Source of the DNA: Macrostomum lignano
Taxonomy: Eukaryota
Length of the DNA stretch: 32,490 nucleotides
Assembly: GCA_002269645.1 (NCBI GenBank)
Contig: NIVC01004881.1
Span: 1 to 32,490, forward strand
Direction: 5' to 3'
The position numbers and the translations under genes are program-made. Below, in pieces: positions 4,185 to 28,739 of the stretch; position 1 is the stretch's first letter, and each line of letters opens with the position of its first letter. The notes beneath the pieces were generated by a model that was not told the origin of the DNA, made no database searches, and worked only from the letters and a program-made list of their open reading frames with translations.

Positions 4185-4777
4185 CTGGTTTGGAGTCATA
4201 ACCTGTGAGCAGTACAATTTGAGATAATCAGCAGGCTAGAATGGGATATTGATCGTATGTTGTGTCAATTTAGCTACTTAGCTTATGTGCAGTACAATCA
4301 TTGGACACAGTCAGTTAGTTATTATTCAAAAATAAAGAAATGATTTATAAAAAACGTTGTTGAAGCCATCATATCATCCTATAAACAAGTAATTTAGTTT
4401 GCAATAATTGCCAATGATTACACTTATACCTAACCCTGAGACTTTAAACGCGTATGCATGCGAGAAATTTTTTTGCTTTGCTGTAATTTCATTTGACAAA
4501 TATATAGATCTTTGCCAAATGTCTCAACTTTAAAATGTAACGTTTTTGGACACATGAGTGACATGACACATTTGATTGCGAAAATTGGCTTTTTTCATAC
4601 TTTATTTCACGTGGATCAGCACCTCTAACAATATTTTGACCGTTGGAATAGCGTTGATTCGCAGTTGGACTGCCGTTGGTAAACCGCCGTTGTATCAACG
4701 GATTTTCCTCCAGACACGCCCAACGGAGGGCCAACGGAGGGCAACAACGTTGAATCAACGTTGGTTTTTCCGCTGGG

Positions 4778-4889
4778 TCTGCGCGATTTTCCGGTTTTTA
4801 TTCGTGCGAACGCAACGCTACCGGTTTCGAAGAATTACCGGCCGACCTCCAATATCAAATTTTGTTTTATCTTCTCCACCCCCACCTCA
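4778..4889 (+). mobile_element. 3' remnant of family-1 LTR (copy A), cut by the EnSpm copy 1 insertion
   Basis: Begins TCTGCGCGATTTTCCGG...TTCGTGCGAAC, as in the other copies, and ends TTCTCCACCCCCACCTCA at 4889, followed by ACAT. Confidence 0.8.
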
Positions 4890-5861
4890 ACATCCCCGGG
4901 ATTTTACCCGCCCCCCTCCAAACCCGGGATTTTTGTCGTCATTTCTTCCAACCTCCGGTGTGAGTTCTCCCTCTCCTGTCCTTGGCCCTGTTTGTCTTGT
5001 CGATGTTTTTGCGTTTTCTCCCCATTTGTCCCTGTGCTTTTCTGTCTGGTCCATGCCCGGTGTCCTGCCCTTGTCACCTTTTCTCCTCTCGCTGCCCTTC
5101 TCAACGTACTACTTAAACATTGTGCTCAGCGCGTTTTTTTGCATGCCTTTCCTCTTTCCCCTTCTTCTTCCCTCCCTTTTCCGCTTTTACTATTATTCTC
5201 TTAGCTTGATCCTCCGTCTTAACAGCCTTGCGTTTAATAGTTATTTTGCGTGAATAGTTAAAATTCATTGGTGCGTGAGTAGTTTAGTCGCCAAGTTACA
5301 GTTTTTCTTTTAATAGCCTGTGCCTCCGGCACCCGTGGAGAAACCTCGTCAGTTATTCAGCCTGCAAATTTAACAATAATAATAACCGAAGTAAACTGCA
5401 ACTTAATAATTCTATTTATTTTTCCGTTAACTTTAAGCCTTAGTCTCTCTTGAGTCATTGCCCGTGGGGCGTAAAATAACCAAGTTCTCATCTCAAAGAA
5501 AGCTCTGAGACTTACTCGTTCCGTAATACGTAAATTACGGTGGTGGCAGCAACTACCCTATTGAAAGCAACAAGCTCAGCAAATCGACACATTAATTTAC
5601 GGTGTCAACAACCTCCGGTGTTTCATCGCTTTGAACGACCGCGCCGCTACACGACCGCTCCGCTACGATTACGACTACCCTCCCCCCGGACTTGAGAACC
5701 CGGCAGTCGGAGTAAAAGGAGAAGAAATTCGTTGAGATTCGTCTGCGCGATTTTCCGGAGTTAATTCGTGCGAACTCAATGCCGTTCGGGTTTTCGAAGA
5801 AACCCAACATTTCAAACCCACCAACTTTCAAATTTTTTCATTCTTCTCCACCCCCACCTCA
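4890..5861 (+). mobile_element. Family-1 LTR (copy B), lacking its first tens of bp
   Basis: Pyrimidine-rich 5' part, CGGCAC motif, AAT-rich tract, conserved core (5450-5780) and end CTCCACCCCCACCTCA at 5861, followed by GTAT. No TGTG start between 4890 and the core. Confidence 0.8.
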
Positions 5862-7953
5862 GTATCACCACTGATTATTTTTCGAAAATTGATTTTAATA
5901 ACAATAACATTATGTGGTAGGGCGATCTACCACTGACCGACGAACGTGATGGCGCCGTGTGGTGACACTTGCTCATGACTCTCTGTTTTTCCGTCACTCG
6001 GTGCGCCATCCCTTGCCCGATCCCTCGCCCCATCTTTTGCCGTTGCTCAATTTTTTTGTTAATTCCCGTTTGCGGCTTTAGTGTCGTCCGCTGCCCCATC
6101 GTCTGCCCCATCCTTCGCCTTCCTGCCCCATCTGTTGCCCCATCCCTGTCCGGACGACATTGTTTCCCCTTTTATAAGGCCATTTCGGGCCGCCTTTTGG
6201 TTTTTTCGCGCGCGCGCGTTTTTTTCCGTATTCGTCGTTCTTCTTCGTGTAAACTCCGTGGTTTGTGCTCGTTCATTAGTGTTTGAGTTTATCCAGTTTC
6301 TGTTTAGTGTTTATAGTTTTTGCCTCCGCTAAGTAAGTTTTAATAGTTTCGCTTAATAGTTAGTCGTTCGGCACCCGGCACCGGCCGTGGACATCTCGTG
6401 AAATTAATATTAATCTCTAATAACTACCGCTTGCGCAATTAACAATAATTATTAATAATAATTTACTAGTTGTTCATTTATCGAAGCCCTTGACAGTTTA
6501 TCTTGAGTTATTTGCCCGTGGGGCGTTAAACAACCAAACTCATTTCATCTCCGAACGAGCTTTGAGGTCTCAACGTTCCGTAATACGAAATTACGGTGGT
6601 GGCAGCGCTACTATACTGATAGTAATCAGCTCAACAACTCAGAAACAGATTTACGGTGTCTAGACCATTGAGTCTACAAATCTGAACGACCGGGCCGCTA
6701 TACGACCGCTCCGCTACGATTACGACTACCCTCCCCCGGACCTGAGGACCCGGCTGTCGGAGTAAAAGGAGAAGAAATTCGTTGTGATTCGTCTGCGCGA
6801 TTTTCCGGCTTTATTCGTGCGAACTCAACGCCGGCGGCAATCCAAACGGGAATCCGCCCCACCTCACTGGTGTCAGCAAATTTTCAAAGCCGCCCATTCC
6901 AAGAAAATTCTTCTCCACCCCCACCTCAATTATCTGGACATTAAAATTAAGCTCGCCCCTTTCTGGCCCCCATTTGTCCACCCCCTGGCGCATATATGAC
7001 GTTTTCTGCCCTCTTTCTGTTCTCCCCGCCCCATTTTCTGGCTTTGTATGCCCAATTTATGGTTATTTTGTTTTTCTGTGTATTTTCTGCGGTATTTTTT
7101 TGTTACCTCTTTCTGGACTCTAGTGTTTTCGCCTTCCCCATTTTCTGGGCTATGTCGACCACCTTGTGTCCTTCGTTTTGGGGTATTTAACCCCGCCCCT
7201 TGCGCCTGTCTCTCCCCTAGACTTCTGCTTTTCCATGCCTTTCTTTCCTTCCGATCCCTTTCTCCCTTTCTGACCCCCCCCTATTCTGCTAATCAACGTT
7301 AAATTAACTTTTATTAATTTTGCTCAACCGGACAGTTACTTAAGTTTAGTTTAAGTGAGAGCCCGCACCGCGGCACCCCAGTCATTTGAATCGTTAGTCG
7401 CTGCTCGAGTGTGAATACAATAACTTGTTTATAATAACTTTGTTTACCGATTAATAAATAAGCAACAATTATAATTTGTCTTCTACGTTCTGGATCAAAA
7501 GCCATAGCCTATCTTAAGTCATTTGCCCGTGGGGCGTAAAATAACCCAATCTCATCTCAAAGAAAGCTCTGAGACTTCAACGTTCCGTAATACGTAAATT
7601 ACGGTGGTGGCAGCGCTACTCTACTAACAGTAATCAGTCAAGCAATCGAAGCGCATTAACTACGGTGTCTGAGGACCCTCTCTGAACGCTCGCGCCTAAC
7701 AAAAACCGCTCGTCTACGACCGAAACTACCCTCCCCCCGGAATTGAGGACCCCGGCAGTCGGAGTATCAGGAGAAAATTTCGTTGAGATTCGTCTGCGCG
7801 ATATTTCCGGATTTAATTCGTGCGAATTCAACGTCGGCGGCAGTTCAAAGTTAATATCACCCAATTCATTTGTGTCAGCAAACCAGCCAAATTCACCGCC
7901 AAAGTTTCCAATTTTTTTTCAACACCCCCCCTTTTTTCTCCGCCCCCACCTCA
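5862..7953 (+). mobile_element. Family-1 LTR (copy D), interrupted by copy C; segments 5862-5912 and 6933-7953
   Basis: Pyrimidine-rich part from 6933, core at 7520-7830, end CTCCGCCCCCACCTCA at 7953 followed by TATA. 5862-5874 (GTATCACCACTGA) resembles positions ~12-24 of the family start (GATCTACCACTGA); that part of the assignment is weaker. Confidence 0.7.
5913..6928 (+). mobile_element. Complete solo LTR, family 1 (copy C), 1016 bp, Gypsy-like 4-bp TSD ATTA
   Basis: Starts TGTGGTAGGGCGATCTACCACTG, ends CCACCCCCACCTCA. ATTA at 5909-5912 and 6929-6932. TATA-like TTTTATAAG near 6170. Confidence 0.9.
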
Positions 7954-8298: not shown

Positions 8299-10514
8299 TA
8301 TAGCTTTTTGCAGCCCATTTGGGCTTACGCGCATTGAATTTAATCCAAGATATGTTTGTCAAAGTAATGGAGCTTTTGTCTATGGTAGCAAGGCTGGCAC
8401 AGCGGCATTTAATTTGGTCCAACAAGCACCAATTTGGTCCATTTAGTTCATTTGCAGCTTAGTCCCAGAATTGTGGACCATATGCTAGGCTGTTGAACGA
8501 ATGTCATTGGCTTGTGATCGAAGCACTCGACGGAGGTGAACACGAAGGAGGTTATCAGATTTCGACTATCAGCAGAGCTCTGGAAAAGCTGTAGCGTACT
8601 TTAATGACTTTCCCGAAATTTCTTCAGATTTCTAAAAGTCAAAAACTATTTCCAGAAACTTCTTTGAGTTAGCAGCTAATCTATAACATACGCATATAAA
8701 TAGTAAATAATTAATTATCACTTAAGTATTAATGTTCTAATTATATTTACGTAATGTATATAATTAAAGGGTTATTTCGCTTTGTTAAAATTAGCTAAAT
8801 CTTTCTAGAAATTTCCGGAAGACAATAACAAAGCTATAAATACACGGCGGCGGCAGTGAAACAAATCACTCGCTCTCCCCTTGTTTTCTCTTTGATCTAA
8901 GTTCCGTTGGTAAATAACTAAATGAACCACCGCCTTGCTCTTATTCAATAATCAATTAAAGAAATTCTACAATGGTCCGGTGAGGCGTCGAGCGATCTCT
9001 TTCAGAATGCGTGTGCATACGCACGCCCGTGACCGCTCATCATGCCATCATTCGCGATCAGCACCGCCGTCGCTACCAACGCCGAAACATAGCACACCAC
9101 TGTCTACTGCCCAGCGTCATCACTTCTCAGCGTGTCTCCCGTCGCCGTCATGTAATATAAATTTAGCTAAACCGTCGCCAACCTCCCTGTTCCCACATCT
9201 AAAAACGACACGGTATCTCGTCGGTGACCAAATAAACTACGCCTACACGGGCTCACGAACGGCCATCCGATCGAGCCATCCGCGCAGCTACATGTATGAC
9301 CTCCACGTATACGTACCAGCGACATCAACCGCAGCACCGCGCAGACGCGACGTTAGCACTGGGTCTCATCCATCGCGAAGAACTCAATTAGCAATCCACA
9401 ATAAACCGGCTGGCACCACTGGCGAGTCTACACATTGCAACCTACTACGAGGTTCCTCGATAAGCCGGTGGTCAACCAGCTGGCCTAACCCGGACGACAC
9501 CCATGAATCTTCTCGGTTCTGTTTCAGCCGCAGAGCGACTACCCGCCTTGATCCCTGGCGCCTATCCGTAGTTCGGGAGTCGTCTGTCTGCAAACCGGCA
9601 ATAACCCGCAGGTCGTTCCAAACTACAGCGACAAACCGCCATCCTGGAGCAGTGCCGCAGAGATCACGGACTTGTTAACCGCCATAATGTACAATCAGTC
9701 TGAACTCCTCGACCGCAGTGCAGCCCAGCTGCCCCTATCCGTCTCGCGGTGAACCCAGTCGTCATCTGTATTAATTTTCAGCAGCGTAATTTCAACCTGG
9801 ACTTTATTCACGGTAACCCAGCATCTAATTAACATTAATTAACCGTCATACTTAGGGACTCCGTCTCCCGTGGGGGGAACTGTTGTAGCGTACTTTAATG
9901 ACTTTCCCGAAATTTCTTCAGATTTCTAAAAGTCAAAAACTATTTCCAGAAACTTCTTTGAGTTAGCAGCTAATCTATAACATACGCATATAAATAGTAA
10001 ATAATAAATAATCACTTAAGTATTAATGTTCTAATTATATTTACGTAATGTATATAATTAAAGGGTTATTTCGCTTTGTTAAAATTAGCTAAATCTTTCT
10101 AGAAATTTCCGGAAGACAATAACAAAGCTATAAATACACGGCGGCGGCAGTGAAACAAATCACTCGCTCTCCCCTTGTTTTCTCTTTGATCTAAGTTCCG
10201 TTGGTAAATAACTAAATGAACCACCGCCTTGCTCTTATTCAATAAACAATTAAAGAAAATTCTACAAAGCAACTTAAAATTTTTGGTAGAGACGCTGACA
10301 TTCCAGCGGTGCGCAACAACCTGCAGACGGTTGAGAGAAGGCAAGAGTTTGTCAAATGGCTCACGAGTGTTTGGACCAAATGGATGCTTTTTGAACCAAA
10401 TTAAATGCCACTGCGCCAGCCTTGCTACCATAGACAAAAGCTCTGTTACATTGGCAAACGTATCTTGGATTAAATTAAAAGCGCGTTAGCCCAAATGGGC
10501 TGCAAAATGCTATA
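8299..10514. mobile_element. MITE-like element (~535 bp net) with ~143-bp imperfect TIRs, carrying a nested LTR element
   Basis: 8299-8441 is the reverse complement of 10372-10514 (TATAGC.TTTTGCAGCCCATTTGGGCT...TTTGGTCCA). Ends are TA-bounded. No coding capacity seen. Confidence 0.8.
8590..10266 (+). mobile_element. Non-autonomous two-LTR retroelement (large TRIM-like or internal-deletion derivative), 1677 bp, TSD AAGC
   Basis: LTRs 8590-8971 and 9884-10266 (TGTAG...CTACA) differ by 3 substitutions and 1 indel by my reading. AAGC on both flanks. TGG-starting PBS-like site at 8973 and GGGGGGAAC polypurine tract before the 3' LTR. TATAAA at 8835. No gag/pol motifs seen in the ~910-bp interior. 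Confidence 0.92.
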
Positions 10515-10954: not shown

Positions 10955-12013
10955 TGTGCTAGGCCGGTCTACCACTGGGGTGAACGACGGCAGGCCTCCA
11001 GCGCGGACAACGGCGGGACGACCAGCTAGACTCCATCGGATGACGGTTGACGTCATGCTTTCAATGTTTGTTCCCATGTTTGTTCCCCCGGTTGTCCCCG
11101 CCCTTGCTCCTTCGTCTGCTCCTTTCGCTGTTCCCTCCCGTGGCCTCTGTTGTTTTAGTGCTTTGAAGTTTTTCCCTTTTCCTTCGTTGTCCTTTCCCTT
11201 GTCCCATCCTTTGTCCTAACCCCTGGGTTATCCTTGCAAAATTAATATTTACAACGTTGTTGTTGGAACCTTTTGCTCATGCGCTTTGCTCGCTTTGCTC
11301 TTTACTTTACTTTTGTTCTCTGACTTTTGAATACTGACTTGACGAGTCTGCTGTTAATATTTAATTTGCGTTTAACTAGAACAGCCTTCTCGACTAAGCG
11401 CTTGTAATTTATTAGCTCGCCCTCGGCACGGCCGAATCCATCTCTCGAGGTTTTTCTTTTAATAGTTAACAACAATAGTAATAACAATTTATCTATTACT
11501 TTAATAATAGCGATAATATTTAGTTCCAATAATAATAATTGCTTATTCAGTTGTTCTTAATCGAAGCCCCAGTCTCTATTGAGTCATTTGCCCGCGGGGC
11601 GTAAAATAACCAATCAGTCTCAACTCAAAGAAAGCTCTGAGACCCTTATCGTTCCGTAATACGAAATTACGGTGGTGGCAGCGCTACTTTACTACTGACA
11701 GTAACAAAACAGCATTTCGACAGTTTACGAATTTTACGGTGTCTGAGGACCCATTCTGAACGACCGGGCCGCTACAAGACCGCTCGAATACGATTACGGC
11801 TACCCTCCCCCCGGAATTGAGGACCCCGGCAGACGAAGTATCCAAGGAGAAGAATCCACACATCATTCGTGAAATTTTCCGGGTTAACGAGTGCCGAGAC
11901 AACACGGCGGAAATTCAAACGTAGAATCCGCCCCACCTCACTGGTGTCGACCAACAATTCAAACCGCCGAATTCAAACGCCGCCCAACAAATTTCTTCTC
12001 CACCCCCACCTCA
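10955..12013 (+). mobile_element. Complete solo LTR, family 1 (copy E), 1059 bp, TSD CACA
   Basis: Starts TGTGCTAGGCCGGTCTACCACTG, ends CCACCCCCACCTCA. CACA at 10951-10954 and 12014-12017. Shared core at 11580-11900. Confidence 0.9.
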
Positions 12014-13105: not shown

Positions 13106-14329
13106 TGTGGTGATCCAGCATTGCTAGCATAGGCTGCTCCTGGGATCCCCTCTTAGCCACAGTCATTTAGTGCTTGGGCTGTAGCAGTGGGAGCTGGGCA
13201 TAGGGCCTGTGCGCTTGCAGCGCTCCCGTCCCTTCCTCCTCTTCCCTTGTGCAGGCTCAGGTGTGCAGCTGTCGCGGGACAGGGAGAGAAACTCTCTCCC
13301 CCTCTCCCCCTAGCGCAGTCTGCAATGGGCTAAAAATAGAAACATTAGTCAGTGGGATATTTCTCCCTAGTAGTCTTAGTTAGTCAGCGGGAACGAGAGC
13401 ATAGCTCTCCGCCCGGGGTAGGCTCTCGTGGGGTCTTGTTGCACTCCTTGCATGCTGCAACATGCAAGCAGTGTACCAGTAGGCCATGCGGAGGCCTCGT
13501 GATGAGGCAGATGTCTTATGGACATCTCCAAGATCGTTCCTGGCTCCGGGTAGTCCACGGAACTGCCATGGAATCTGCCACGGAACTGCCTCTGAGCTTC
13601 CCATTGGCCCTGAGACCCCCAGATTTTAGTATAAATACAGAGTAGGTGAAGGCCCAAAAGAGACCATCTCGCTCTCGATCTTCGGATCCTCGTCTTCCGA
13701 TCCTCGTTCGGAGACTGCCTGCTTGGCTTCGAGCAAGAGCTAGTATTCCTATATGCTTTTCCTAGACTAACTAGCTTAGGCAAATTCGCTAGACGCTTTT
13801 CCTAGGGATAACCAGCAAGCAAACATTTGTTGCAGCTGCCATTGCTCGTTAAGACTGCCGCAGGCCTTTTGTGTCTTCAGCTCGCCAGACCTTCAACACC
13901 GTCTGGACCTGGTCTGGTGGCCTACATCCTACGCTGTTGGGCAACATCAGCGACACCTCATAGGCTTACGGATTGTTACTGCGACACCAGTTGAGCAATT
14001 AAACGATATTTTAGGATCGGCCTGTGACCGTTATTCACATTAATAAACGTTAACTGACTTTGTCTTGTCTTATTCATTCTCTACTTAACAGTAGGCCTAC
14101 CTAGGGACAGCCTGTCAAGGATATTACCTGTAGACCTACAAGGTGGCAGCAACCCAACTACCAACTCGGTTTAATATCTGATTGTAACTTAATAGAGACT
14201 AAGGGTTCTCGGACCATAGTGATAGACCACTCAGGCCAGCTACCTGCCGTGCTAGTTGTTGAGGACAGACAGAGTGTGCTAGTAGGCAGCAGCAGTAGTC
14301 ATCAAAGAGTAGGAAGCGCAGGCATCACA
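13106..14329 (+). mobile_element. Solo LTR, family 2 (1224 bp), TSD CAAT
   Basis: TGTGGTG...CATCACA ends. CAAT at 13102-13105 and 14330-14333. TATAAA at 13630 and AATAAA at 14042. GC-richer than the flanks. Confidence 0.88.
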
Positions 14330-23122: not shown

Positions 23123-24418
23123 CGAGGGTCACTCCGAAAGTTTTTGCGTTCGACTACTTCCCCGCAAGCCAGCGCCGTAAAATTGCACCAAACCTTAATT
23201 CCAGAAGTTTTCAACTTGCATATAAAAATTCAAGTGCCCAGCTTTAAGAGAAGCAACGCAATCTGCAATTGAAATTCAGTTTTCAGCCGCCTGCCAGCCA
23301 TGGCCGCCGAACTGTCGAGGCGCGACATCCGCGCCATAATTTTCTACAACTTCAAGCGCGGCCTCACGACGCAGCAATGCCACGAGAAGATGCAGGCAGC
23401 TCTGGGAGATTCTGCGCCTTCGATCCGCACCATCCAGAACTGGTACCGCGACCTTCGGGCTGGACGGTGCAGCCTGGACGACGACGACCGAGAAGGACGT
23501 CCTGCGACAGCAACGACTGGAGAAAACGTCGAGCTGGCACGCAGCCTGATCGAAGAGGATCGGCGTGTGACCCACGTGCAATTGGAGCAGTAGCTGGGCA
23601 TTGGATCCGGGCAAGTGCAGAAGATTTTGCACGAACACCTTGGCGTACGGCGACTGTGCACTCGTTGGGTGCCGCATTTGCTGACGCAGCAGCAGAAGGA
23701 TGAACGCGTGCGGTGGTGCCGCCAGATGCTCGCTGACTTCCAGGACGGCGCCGCACGTGGTGTTTTCGACGTCGTGACGGGCGACGAAACCTGGGTGTTC
23801 CAGCACGACCCCGAGACGAAGCGCCAGTCGTCGGTGTGGTGCTTCTTTGGCGAGGAGTCACCAACGAAGGTTCGCCGCTCCAGGAGCGTCGGCAAAGCCA
23901 TGGTCGCCAGCTTCTTCGGCAGATCAGGCCACGTGGCGACTGTGGTGCTGGACGGGCAGCGAACAGTGACGGCGGAGTGGTACGTCACAGTCTGCCTGCC
24001 GCAGGTGCTGCAGGCGTGGCAGGAGCGGCGTCCCAAACGCGGAATCCGCGGCCTTCGCCTGCACCACGACAACGCGAGTTCGCACACGGCGCAGCGAACC
24101 ATCACGTTCTTGGCCGAAAATCATGTTTCCGTGGTCGGACACCCGCCCTACTCGCCCGACCTGGCTCCGTGTGATTTTTTTTTGTTTCCGAAGGTGATGG
24201 CCGGGCTTCGTGGACAGAGATTTCCCACGGTTGAGGACGCGATTCGTGCGTACAGGGACGGTGTGGATGCACTGACAAAACAGGACTGGGCTGCGGCCTT
24301 TGAGCAGTGGTTTGAGCGAATGCGAAAGTGTGTGTGCGCGCAGGGCAACTACTTTGAACAGATGTGAGGGGGTTTAGCTCTGGCGAAAGCTGAAAGTGGT
24401 CGAACGCAAAAACTTTCG
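23123..24418 (+). mobile_element. mariner (Tc1/mariner, D,D34D) transposon, 1296 bp, TA-flanked
   Basis: TA|CGAGGGTCACTCCGAAAGTTTTTGCGTTCGAC left TIR; right GTCGAACGCAAAAACTTTCG|TA; transposase inside. Confidence 0.95.
23300..24367 (+). pseudogene. mariner transposase with one in-frame TAG (23591-23593)
   Basis: ORFs 23300-23593 and 23615-24367 are in the same frame. Motifs WVPHLL, TGDETW, HHDNA and YSPDLAPCDFFLF, with 34 residues between the 2nd and 3rd catalytic D. Confidence 0.95.
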
Positions 24419-24715: not shown

Positions 24716-26323
24716 TAAAGAAAGGTCTAGTATTTTTGGCTTTTCATGTTCCTGAGATTTGTGAACAACTAGTTAATACTGATAATATCAAGATTCTGGT
24801 TAATATTGATGGTGTGCCTATTTATAATAGTCAGTTTGGCTTTTGGACAATTCTTGGCACTTTGGAAAAGCTTCCTGGTAGTGTTTTTCTTATTGGTGCC
24901 TACTATGGACCAGGAAAGCCAGATTCTTCTAATGAATTTTTGCTAGAATTTGTCTTGAGATGAAAGAACTAGCTGAGAATCAAGGATTACAGCTTGTACC
25001 ATGTAGGCAAAAAGTGCCAGTTACACTTCAGTGGATTTATGTGACCTTCCTGCAAGAAAATTTGTAAAGAATACAGCTGGTCATACAGGCTATTATTCAT
25101 GTGATCATTGTTCAACCAAAGGTGTGTTTGATGAACAAGCTCGAATGGTTGTTTTTCCTGAAACGAATGCAGTTCGGCGGACTAAAGATTCATTTCGTTT
25201 GCGTTTACAAACTGAGCATCATAAGGCAACATCATCATCTTTTGAACAGATTGCTGTGGACATGGTTAGAAGTTTTCCTAGTGATTCAATACATGTTCTC
25301 TACAAAGGTGTTGCACAAAGGTTGCTTGGAAATCTTAACTCTGGACCTGCTAAGTTCCGCATTAGTCCAAAAAATAAGCTGCAGATCAATGAGTGGCTTA
25401 AAGATATTGGGAAGTTAACACCATCAGATTTTCAACGCAAGCCAAAATCTATTGCACATGTCAACTCATGGAAAGCAACTGAGCTGCGTCAATTCTGCTT
25501 GTATCTTATCCCTCTTGTGCTACCAAAATATGTGCCTAAGGAAGAAGCAACTGACTTATTTCTTTGCTTGCATCTCATCTGTATTCTTCTGAACTGTCCA
25601 CGAATAGTCAACAATCAACATTCCCTACTTCAACAGTTTGTGAAGGCATTTTATAAGCTTGGGCAAGAACTTTTGGGTGCAAGCCTATTCACACCAACTG
25701 TTCATGGTCTTCAGCACCTCGTTGAAGATTTAATTGCACATGGTGATATTGAACAATTCTCAGCCTTCCAGTTCGAAAACTTTAGTCGGTTTGTCAAGCG
25801 GAGCATCCGATCTGCTAATCTTCCTCTTCAACAGTTAGCAAATCGAGTCGAGGAGCAGGGGCCATGTCTAGGTCAGCACAGGAACATTCGTATATCCAAG
25901 TTAAAGGCTCGATGTGCATTTTCAGAACACTTTTCGAGCATTGCACCTGTTCCTCCAGACTATGCAGGCTTTATGCAGTTTAAGAAAATTCAAATAAGTT
26001 CAGAGATCCAGCTTGCACTTAGGCAGCGCGACTCTTATTTTTCTATTGTTGTTAGTGGTAGGATGAAAGTTTGCAAGCTTGCCAATATTCTTCGCGACAC
26101 TCGAGATTCTTCTTGTCTGTTAGTGTACCAAGAATTCAAGGAAGTGTGTCCTTATTATGAGAAGCCCATCCGATCATCAGAAATTGGTATCTATCGTCTA
26201 AGACGCCTGGACCGAAGTTTCAAAACTTGCAATGCTGGGGCTGTTAAATCGAAGTTTATGGTGCTGCCAGCAGGCCAAGAATCAAGGGACAGCTATGCTG
26301 TCACCCTTTTGCATACCATCTAG
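24700..26323 (+). pseudogene. EnSpm/CMC transposase, 5'-truncated, with two frameshifts (~24955, ~25038)
   Basis: VNIDGVPIY...FWTILG, CDLPARKFVK..GHTGYYSCDHC, PSDSIHVLYKGV, PSDFQRKPKS, WKATELRQF, TVHGLQHL, FSAFQFENF. Confidence 0.9.
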
Positions 26324-26404: not shown

Positions 26405-28739
26405 ATGTTTTCCCTAATCGAGTTTTTGGAGATCTAACAACAGCTGTCATCCCATATATCTGGTTGCATGGTGACCACACTGCTGCATTCCCCCCACCTT
26501 CTCAATATTCTCGGTTTCGCACAATTAGTCGAACTCAGACAGTTGCTGAAGATGATTGGCCGCGGTACAATGTTAAGGTCCTAGCGGCTCAAGGTATTTT
26601 TATGCAAATCTTTTTTTGTTTAAATCTTTACATAAATATTTTTATTCTAGTATCTTTTCTACTTCAGACTCTTACGACAGGCTGGAATATTTGTCACGAA
26701 AGTATGAGCAACGCGCGTCATTATCAGACAGTGATTTTGGAAAGCGAGGGAGAACAAAGACTTAGCTGTTTTTAGACGAGCCTTTACTGCCAGACCCAAA
26801 AATGCAAAAGAAAACCAATGACAGAAGCAGAAGCAGTGTCTCGGCGCGAGCCTGTCAAGATTTTCACTTCCAGCCCAGCCAGCCAGACTCCTCTGAATAC
26901 AATTCTTGAAGAAAACATCAGGCGGTCTGATGCGCAGCGAGACCGAGAGGGCGACATCAGGCGGTCTGATGCGCAGCGAGACCGAGAGGGCGACATCAGG
27001 CGGTCGGATGCGCAGCGAGATCGAGAAGGCGACAGCCTTCGGTCCGATACGCAGCGAGACCGAGAGGGCGACAGCCTTCGGTCCGATACGCAGCGAGACC
27101 GAGAGGGCGACATCAGGCGGTCGGATGCGCAGCGAGACCGAGAGGGCGACATCAGGCGGTCGGATGCGCAGCGAGACCGAGAAGGCGACATCAGGCGGTC
27201 GGATGCGCAGCGAGACCGAGAAGGCGACAGCCTTCTGTCCGATACGCAGCGAGACCGAGAGGGCGACAGCCTTCGGTCCGATACGCAGCGAGACCGAGAG
27301 GGCGACAGCCTTCGGTCCGATACGCAGCGAGACTGAGAGGGCGACAGCCTTCGGTCCGATACGCAGCGAGACTGAGAGGGCGACATCAGGCGGTCGGATG
27401 CGCAGCGAGACCGAGAGGGCGACAGCCTTCGGTCCGATGCGCAGCGAGACCGAGAGGGCGACATCAGGCGGTCGGATGCGCAGCGAGACCGAGAGGGCGA
27501 CATCAGGCGGTCGGATGCGCAGCAAGACCGAGAGGGCGACATCAGGCGGTCGGATGCGCAGCGAGACCGAGAGGGCGACAGCCTTCGGTCCGACCTATAC
27601 GCAGCGAGACCGAGAGGGCGACATCAGGCGGTCTGATGCGCAGCGAGACGAGAGGGCGACATCAGGTGGTCGGATGCGCAGCGAGACCGAGAGGGCGCCA
27701 TCAGGCGGTCGGATGCGCAGCGAGACCGAGAGGGCGACATCAGGCGGTCGGATGCGCAGCGAGACCGAGAGGGCGACATCAGGCGGTCGGATGCGCAGCG
27801 AGATCGAGAAGGCAACAGCCTTCGGTCCCATACGCAGCGAGACCGAGCAGTCAACGGCAACAGACGGATCCAGCTTGACAATGAGCATTCGTGTCACTGT
27901 CCCTGTGTCCAAAGTAAGCCATCGTTTTTACTTCAAGCTTTAACCTAAAGCTGAACACTTTATAAACACTTTTTTCTTTATACAGGGTGGTTTAATCTGC
28001 TGTTTATGCGACTTGATGATATGGAAAAGAAACAGACTGCCATCATGGAGCAGATGACCAAGATGACCAAGAAGAAGGCTCAGTTGCTGCCAAATTTGAC
28101 GCCATTATTGCCCATCAAAACGAAGGACGAAATTCTTCAATTTGCAGTGCTTCTGCAAGAAAATGAAGGCGTCCAAGCTGAATTGGTAAATTTGTAATAA
28201 ATGTTTCAAGTATTTGACATTACTCAATTTTGCTGGTATCTCATTACTTTTTACGCAAGTACAAAGTACTTATTACTTTTTAACACCTGTTGTAGGACGT
28301 TCTTGCCAAGCAATGCCATTGTTCTGACGCTAGACGAACGGTGAGGGATTTCTTCGAAAAACTCGCTCCACTCTCGGTTTGGTCCGCTTTTTCCGTTCCG
28401 AGGAGAAAAGGAAAGACAGCTGTGCCTAAATTAGTGACCAAAGCTATATGCGGTACGTTGTTTCACTTCCAAATGGCTTATAAGCAGCATTATTCAAAAA
28501 GTTAAATTCTAAGTTCGCCCAATTTTTCGTTCTCAGACAGTCTAGCCGCCAGCAAGCTATTGTCCTCGCAGACTGGAAAGCAGAAATTGTCCGGATTCGT
28601 CGGCGAAATCGTTAAATATTTCGGAGGAAATGACAAGTCCAAGGACAATGACAACGGGCAACTTCCATCAGTTCCATTACTTCCATCTCCAGCAAGCGAG
28701 CTGCCTGATGATTTTAAGGAGGGCGAGTTCAGCGATTAA
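26405..28739 (+). pseudogene. EnSpm accessory gene (ORF2) of copy 2, spliced and disabled, containing a 13-aa repeat block
   Basis: Start MFSLIEFLE, then a frameshift into LTTAVIPYIWL. GT-AG introns at approximately 26593-26669, 27913-27985, 28186-28295 and 28453-28538. Later exons read WFNLLFMRLDDMEKKQ, RTVRDFFEKLAPLSVWSAFSVPRRKGK and ...EGEFSD*. Stops and frameshifts at ~26435, ~26768, ~26815, 27334, 27373. Confidence 0.7.
26915..27847 (+). repeat. 39-bp GC-rich minisatellite, ~24 units of two variants
   Basis: Variant A GAGACCGAGAGGGCGACATCAGGCGGTCGGATGCGCAGC and variant B with CAGCCTTCGGTCCGATAC in the variable segment. No spacers. Confidence 0.95.

Follow-up and report, generated by a model that had tools for sequence, protein, structure and literature searches.

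A conserved core of Ty3/gypsy LTRs in Macrostomum lignano is predicted to pair with the 3' end and the 5' half of its putative primer, tRNA-Leu

Extended contacts between a retrotransposon RNA and its primer tRNA are described, in the parts of the literature covered here, for Ty1, Ty3 and Drosophila gypsy. In Ty1, according to the accessible parts of the papers, boxes that match the T and D arms of tRNA-iMet by complementarity help to package the primer and to start synthesis from it (PMC4974528, PMC5371799). The accessible accounts of Ty3 describe a primer binding site (PBS) of the 5'-3' bipartite kind, with extra segments within the LTR (U3) that include a D-arm contact (PMC11381356, PMC5371799), and a second, 3' PBS is reported for Drosophila gypsy in the available text (PMC1635307). 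A different kind of tRNA-related LTR sequence occurs, as far as the accessible text goes, in Helenus TRIMs, short and non-autonomous elements whose A and B boxes are retained, presumably to serve as a Pol III promoter, and for which the author excludes a role in priming (PMC10886601), and a one-off insertion of two tRNAs is described, again in the parts available, for a mosquito LTR/PBS border (PMC3286476). The LTRs analysed here have a conserved core whose strongest signal, judged from its sequence, is intermolecular complementarity to tRNA-Leu, the stems within the core being secondary.

The stretch under study (contig NIVC01004881.1, 32,490 nt, hereafter the window) contains diverged copies of a ~1-kb repeat whose 5' halves can barely be aligned while their 3' ~350-450 nt share 73-81% identity, which bears out what a first reading of the letters alone (the sequence-only reading) had claimed for this core. 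When the genome was searched with the core, 1177 candidates came up, 40 of which were scored. Pairs of LTRs 9-13 kb apart are 99-100% identical and have TG...CA ends and 4-bp target duplications (3/3 full-length copies). Between the LTRs of one copy a Pfam scan detected gag and pol in the order PR-RT-RH-IN. Because paired LTRs with TG...CA ends and target duplications flank gag-pol, the repeat bearing the core is a Ty3/gypsy LTR; the LTR is ~1.05 kb long and in sense on the + strand of the window, the core forms its 3' part, and the full-length elements (family 1) are coding and ~10 kb in length. A PBS for the host tRNA-Leu starts 1 nt past the 5' LTR and is an 18-nt match to tRNA-Leu(AAG/TAG) genes of the host in some copies and bulged or CAG-like in others. 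In two young LTRs a TATA-like sequence (313) is followed by AATAAA (497 or 577), the internal tRNA-complementary site described below (658 or 737) and the D-arm box (771 or 850), and since the core thus comes after TATA and AATAAA, it probably corresponds to U5. The closest named relatives of the reverse transcriptase (RT) are labelled Macrostomum lignano (56-61% identity), and the accessible main text of a paper on LTR families of this species mentions neither a PBS nor a tRNA (PMC12801592). A metagenome scan with the RT gave 26 short loci of 27-44% identity, and an RT tree of 13 rows, built without named references, did not resolve relationships.

The window contains the following LTR copies (the internal site and the D-arm box are tRNA-complementary segments defined further below):

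4777-4889: 3' end of nested copy A, which displaced the 5' end of copy B; the nest and its target duplications were worked out on L245, a different allele
4890-5861, + strand: 3' portion of solo LTR copy B, ending in CCACCTCA at 5854-5861
5913-6928, + strand: solo LTR copy C, inserted in copy D, target duplication ATTA; internal site 6597-6606, D-arm box 6704-6711
6933-7953 plus 5862-5912, + strand: solo LTR copy D; internal site 7605-7614, D-arm box 7704-7711
10955-12013, + strand: solo LTR copy E, target duplication CACA; internal site 11673-11682, D-arm box 11778-11785
13106-14329, + strand: solo LTR of a second family that cannot be aligned to family 1 and follows the same box logic; GGTGGCAGC..CTACC at 14142-14162 and, at 14225-14232, a D-arm box that fits tRNA-Leu(TAG), with TATAAA (13630) and AATAAA (14042) upstream

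The joint spanning the insertion of copy C is present in public contigs. The tandem LTRs at 4777-7953 (2700-4900 in L245) are a nest of solo LTRs, all in one orientation, each inserted in about the first 15-65 nt of another member with 4-bp duplications (GTAT, ACAT, ATAT, ATTA), which suggests self-targeted integration; at least two copies per source were found in 15 of the 67 sources with a match, some of these sources duplicating one locus. Elsewhere in the window, two 98% identical repeats that have TGT...ACA ends and enclose non-coding sequence, at a distance of 1294 bp (8582-10270), are probably a small non-autonomous LTR element, and transposase-like ORFs, which we take to be CACTA-like and mariner-like, occur together with a 39-bp tandem array at 862-1656, 23594-24367, 25007-26323 and 26767-27966.

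Within the core of copy B, complementarity to tRNA-Leu is distributed over two regions:

5541-5550, + strand: internal PBS-like site TGGTGGCAGC, complement of the last 10 nt of tRNA-Leu(AAG/TAG), CCA included
5553-5557, + strand: CTACC following the internal site, complement of tRNA nt 1-5
5628-5679, + strand: colinear tract for the 5' half of tRNA-Leu, pairing with nt 1-39 in cofolds, with the next five segments
5628-5637, + strand: anticodon-arm complement, tRNA nt 31-39
5641-5645, + strand: complement of tRNA nt 24-28
5653-5660, + strand: D-arm complement GACCGCTC (D-arm box), tRNA nt 13-20
5662-5667, + strand: complement of tRNA nt 6-11
5675-5679, + strand: 5'-end complement CTACC, tRNA nt 1-5

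Conservation was scored in an alignment of 68 near-full cores, taken from 74 distinct matches in the first 78 loci and the window, of which 43 were kept at <97% identity (mean identity 78%). The tRNA-paired boxes are the most conserved elements scored, with values of 0.97-0.99 against a core mean of 0.82; the internal site reaches 0.98 and is exact in 37/43 copies. Computed, like all duplex and cofold energies in this study, for tRNA without modifications, the duplex of the tract with tRNA-Leu has a mean of -41.7 kcal/mol in the 43 copies; the four tracts around it give -19 to -23, and the tract itself gives -18.5 kcal/mol when paired with tRNA-Lys (43 copies). In cofolds with the whole tRNA, Leu-AAG beats 20/20 shuffles in each of the copies B, C, D and E, and the Lys control does so in copy D and only there. 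A further predicted partner of the tract is tRNA-Leu(CAG), with duplexes of -36 to -38 kcal/mol, and the conserved TGAACG is an exact complement of the anticodon arm of this isoacceptor; the PBS of the family fits tRNA-Leu(CAG) better in 4/8 sequences, whereas the internal site fits AAG/TAG only. The presence of the tRNA-Leu boxes would explain why one part of a fast-evolving LTR is frozen.

These segments lie outside the PBS and are complementary to the predicted primer tRNA, as in a multipartite PBS. Like that of Ty1, in the parts of the papers available, the arrangement consists of several short boxes that are colinear with a 3'-end site and pair with other arms of the tRNA. In Ty1, however, the boxes sit just 3' of the working PBS, whereas the colinear partner in the core is an LTR-internal, apparently non-priming site, the true PBS is located downstream, and the 5' acceptor strand is among the targets as well. 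With Ty3 and Drosophila gypsy, as described in the accessible text, the core shares that a Ty3/gypsy element has extra, here predicted, tRNA-binding segments away from the PBS. The segments of Ty3 and Drosophila gypsy are located near the RNA 3' end without a duplicate CCA-end site; those of the core lie in the putative U5, cover approximately nt 1-39 and include a further site for the CCA end, adjacent to a helix. What sets the core apart, at the level of sequence, from the multipartite PBS of Ty1 and Ty3 and from the second site of Drosophila gypsy is where its segments lie, how much of the tRNA they cover and that the CCA-end site is duplicated. No arrangement like that of the core was found in the accessible parts of PMC3601003, PMC3286476 and PMC12471100, and we found no description of an LTR-internal second PBS combined with a 5'-half tract in the accessible open-access literature.

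The sequence-only reading had put its emphasis on hairpins in the core, with apparent covariation, and had proposed selection on RNA structure. The hairpins it named were confirmed in sequence and coordinates, hairpin 3 recurring at 5521-5540, 6578-6596, 7585-7604 and 11654-11672, and the long stem at 5732-5779 is likewise present:

5459-5471, + strand: hairpin 1 (GCCC/GGGC), 98-100% canonical in 43 copies, no two-sided changes; possible extension at 5454-5458 / 5476-5480
5486-5510, + strand: hairpin 2 (UCUCA/UGAGA), 93-100% canonical, changes only one-sided, G-U
5521-5540, + strand: hairpin 3, 91-100% canonical, one compensatory change in 9 rows; abuts the internal tRNA 3'-end site
5680-5712, + strand: hairpin 7 (CUCC..CCGG/CCGG..GGAG), 84-100% canonical, no two-sided changes
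5732-5779, + strand: bulged stem around the TTTTCCGG loop, conservation 0.74, the lowest of the scored elements; refolded in E-type copies

Hairpins 1-3, 5 and 7 are mostly 84-100% canonical and nearly invariant in the 43 copies, and it is plausible that they are real as structures; their near invariance also means that the power to detect covariation is low. For hairpin 1 an H-type pseudoknot was considered by eye, and an extended stem fits equally well. Pairing of the 5' arm of hairpin 3 with 5666-5673 was rejected as an alternative, being weaker than the local hairpin (-3.9 vs -6.5 kcal/mol). In total, 56 proposed pairs were scored against other complementary column pairs as the null, a variant state being counted if common to at least three rows. 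At this low power, covariation within the family showed no significant excess: lineage-level variant states are still paired in 14/44 cases, as compared with 37% for other complementary column pairs, and compensatory in 4/44 as compared with 4.1% (p=0.11; 43 copies in both cases). The sole clean two-sided change in the 43-copy alignment is U-A to A-U at 5527/5534, in 9 rows. The different stem proposed to close the loop in copy E has both its arms (11864-11870 / 11887-11893), yet these are not positionally homologous to the stem of the other copies, being shifted in register and inconsistently kept in E-type copies. Selection at the RNA level is still the best reading of the core, but what carries it is the complementarity to tRNA-Leu and not stem covariation; the hairpins themselves may have a part in packaging or dimerisation, or a TAR-like one.

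The highly canonical hairpins could also be taken to mean that the core is an intramolecular leader structure, serving packaging, dimerisation or sequestration of the PBS, in which CUACC pairs with the GGUGG of PBS-like sites and the match to the tRNA follows from the symmetry of its acceptor stem. GGUGG/CUACC hairpins are indeed predicted, and two sister LTRs have GCCACC in place of the tRNA-matched box. Genome-wide, however, GGTGGCAGC-N(0-7)-CTACC occurs 1835 times (14 for the reversed pattern) and the CCACC variant, which makes the better hairpin and mismatches the tRNA, 153 times (24 reversed), a ratio of 12 to 1 in favour of the tRNA-matched form over the perfect hairpin, in counts that represent copies and not independent events. 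This explanation, moreover, leaves the D-arm and anticodon-arm boxes and the ACG extension unaccounted for and lacks significant covariation, and we regard it as quite unlikely. Even less can be said for a self-cleaving ribozyme, which we consider extremely improbable. The minus strand at 5675-5725 has a stem-loop ending in GGAGGG and looks superficially twister-like. By eye, though, it has neither the UAA cleavage motif nor the P1 of twister, and the second pseudoknot is broken in copies D and E. The core matches no Rfam covariance model at E <= 5 on either strand, in line with the earlier failure to fit it to a known ribozyme; a single chance-level miRNA match lies elsewhere in the window.

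Complementarity to tRNA-Leu extends beyond family 1. A search with the RT detected sister families at 58-61% identity, and of 10 sister elements fetched, the 8 with clear LTR pairs were analysed. The D-arm box is present in 8/8 of their LTRs, in several of them in a hairpin loop whose stems differ (by eye), and ACGCTACC-type 5'-end boxes are found in most of the 8, with up to six in tandem. A broader set of 17 Leu-PBS clusters, comprising 30 loci chosen by their Leu PBS and 10 full-length elements, was searched for individual 7-mers: those complementary to tRNA nt 2-8 occur in 7/17 clusters (0.4 expected), D-arm 7-mers in 4/17 each (0.4-0.5 expected) and CCA-end 7-mers in 9-10/17, the last belonging in part to degenerate PBS arrays, whereas T-arm/B-box 7-mers occur in 0-1 of 17. 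Neither an internal site nor a clear box was found in three of these clusters (L132, L139, L154). Fifty internal-type sites fall into 9 mutually unalignable contexts, and helices stop immediately 5' of it more often than they do in shuffled sequences (Fisher p 5e-5, 10 representatives); taken individually, the abutting helix has p<0.05 in 6/10 representatives, and p=0.54 in that of family 1.

The choice of tRNA segments bears on two other possibilities, namely that the boxes derive from a tRNA and act as a minus-strand Pol III promoter, the role suggested for Helenus LTRs, or that a tRNA was once reverse-transcribed and left them behind as a neutral relic. The minus strand of copies B and C reads an A-box-like TAGCGGAGCGG, with a B-box-like word 24 nt away in copy B, and the colinearity of the boxes suggests an origin as a captured tRNA copy. 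T-arm words, however, are not enriched, the enriched nt 1-8 and CCA end are no promoter elements, and the order and copy number of the boxes vary between families. In keeping with the accessible description of Helenus, the LTRs share with it tRNA-related sequence in gypsy-mobilised animal elements with 4-bp target duplications; unlike Helenus, family 1 is autonomous and coding, has no B box that is conserved and shows complementarity to the kind of tRNA that is its own primer. A B box is present in 1/12 LTR regions and 9/43 copies, which together with the coding length of ~10 kb led us to reject membership in Helenus/TRIMp3, and which also makes a promoter or relic very unlikely.

Duplex formation with nt 1-25 of tRNA-Leu(AAG) was also compared between regions. 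Among 17 Leu-type regions, including the 4 window copies of family 1, 12 have z <= -2.4, and the mean z is -3.8, as compared with -0.4 to -0.8 for control fragments. The five regions in which this signal was not found are copy D, L128, L137, L176 and L180, the last of which reaches z -4.0 with the TAG isoacceptor. The second LTR family of the window likewise prefers tRNA-Leu(TAG) (z -9.7), the isoacceptor that its D box matches. LTRs primed by other tRNAs, represented by 7 of 10 fetched (the other three were a near-duplicate and two whose ends were unclear or duplicates), range from -1.8 to +1.8, with 0/7 at z <= -2.4. In three LTRs primed by tRNA-Lys(TTT), no corresponding boxes for tRNA-Lys were seen, so that covariation of primer and boxes from one amino acid to another was not observed, and a tRNA-Leu(CAG)-primed family with a perfect PBS was represented by one match only, which resembles a decayed copy of a sister family; the Leu-type LTR families may be of common origin. 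Approximately ten otherwise unalignable LTR contexts that keep tRNA-Leu boxes in differing orders, one of them matching another isoacceptor, provide a natural comparative series. As a separate observation, CGAACCC, the complement of the 5' strand of the tRNA T arm, lies 59-66 nt before the LTR end in 3/7 non-Leu LTRs (L225-L244: C505, C3200, C1760), an arrangement that to us recalls the HIV-1 primer activation signal.

Taking these comparisons together, we consider it fairly likely that the core boxes form a multipartite docking platform for the predicted primer tRNA-Leu in the leader of the genomic RNA. The tRNA's 3' end would first anneal to the 10-nt internal site and stack on hairpin 3, which would hinder extension from there, while the 5' acceptor strand, once freed, would be kept on the colinear tract along with the D arm and the anticodon arm. 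In a next step the 3' end would pass to the true PBS, which is longer and lies ~320-420 nt downstream; alternatively, a second tRNA might remain attached and act as a ligand for packaging or bridging. Productive priming is unlikely to start at the internal site, since in full-length copies both LTRs run past it to CCTCA. In the standard scheme of retrotransposon replication, an LTR that extends past a site implies that productive priming takes place elsewhere, downstream, and as the LTRs extend well beyond the internal site, priming should therefore occur at the downstream PBS. Help in docking would be useful, since several PBSs of these elements are short or bulged. When a whole leader was cofolded, the tRNA paired with the true PBS and nowhere else; simultaneous pairing with the PBS and the upstream tract is a crossing topology outside the scope of the program. 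Going further, and tentatively, one might see in this branch of animal Ty3/gypsy elements an RNA chaperone built into the LTR, in which a non-priming second PBS stacked on a helix and an antisense copy of the tRNA 5' half would together seize the CCA end of tRNA-Leu, force its acceptor stem apart and deliver the unfolded 3' end to the true PBS, or keep a second tRNA as a structural ligand. The locus makes the question of how a retroelement chooses and unfolds one tRNA among many directly testable.

Boxes of this kind might instead have a regulatory role, and not one in priming, when they bind tRNA-Leu or pieces of it: they might be decoys or targets for tRNA fragments, take part in tRNA-guided silencing or form a sensor tuning gag translation. 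A tRNA 5' half (nt 1-39) fits the tract and a 3' fragment fits the internal site, the 5'-end boxes are multimerised up to six times, and targeting of LTR elements by 3'-tRFs and by Gtsf1-tRNA is published, according to the accessible parts of the reports (PMC12853362, 10.1101/2020.08.11.246769). Yet the boxes follow the element's own primer type, and surplus targets for silencing should disappear unless they are of benefit to the element, which makes a regulatory role unlikely when set against docking of the primer.

Several further features of these elements concern priming and coding capacity. The 3' ends of LTRs (L105-L124; 6859-6874 and 11933-11948 in the window) have arrays of degenerate units, each of an LTR end plus PBS, in U5, and one element has a duplicate of such a unit directly after its 5' LTR; the LTR may grow through priming at a duplicated downstream PBS. 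At the 3' LTR of family 1 no polypurine tract was found and a C-rich stretch is present just outside it in 3/3 copies (L031, L034), whereas purine-rich sequence adjoins the 3' LTR in 8/8 sister elements. A third ORF of 285 aa without a Pfam match precedes the 3' LTR in one copy (L031:2057-2911, minus strand). In another (L032), gag and pol overlap in different frames, and their translations imply GGGAAAC within the overlap, which is presumably a slippery site.
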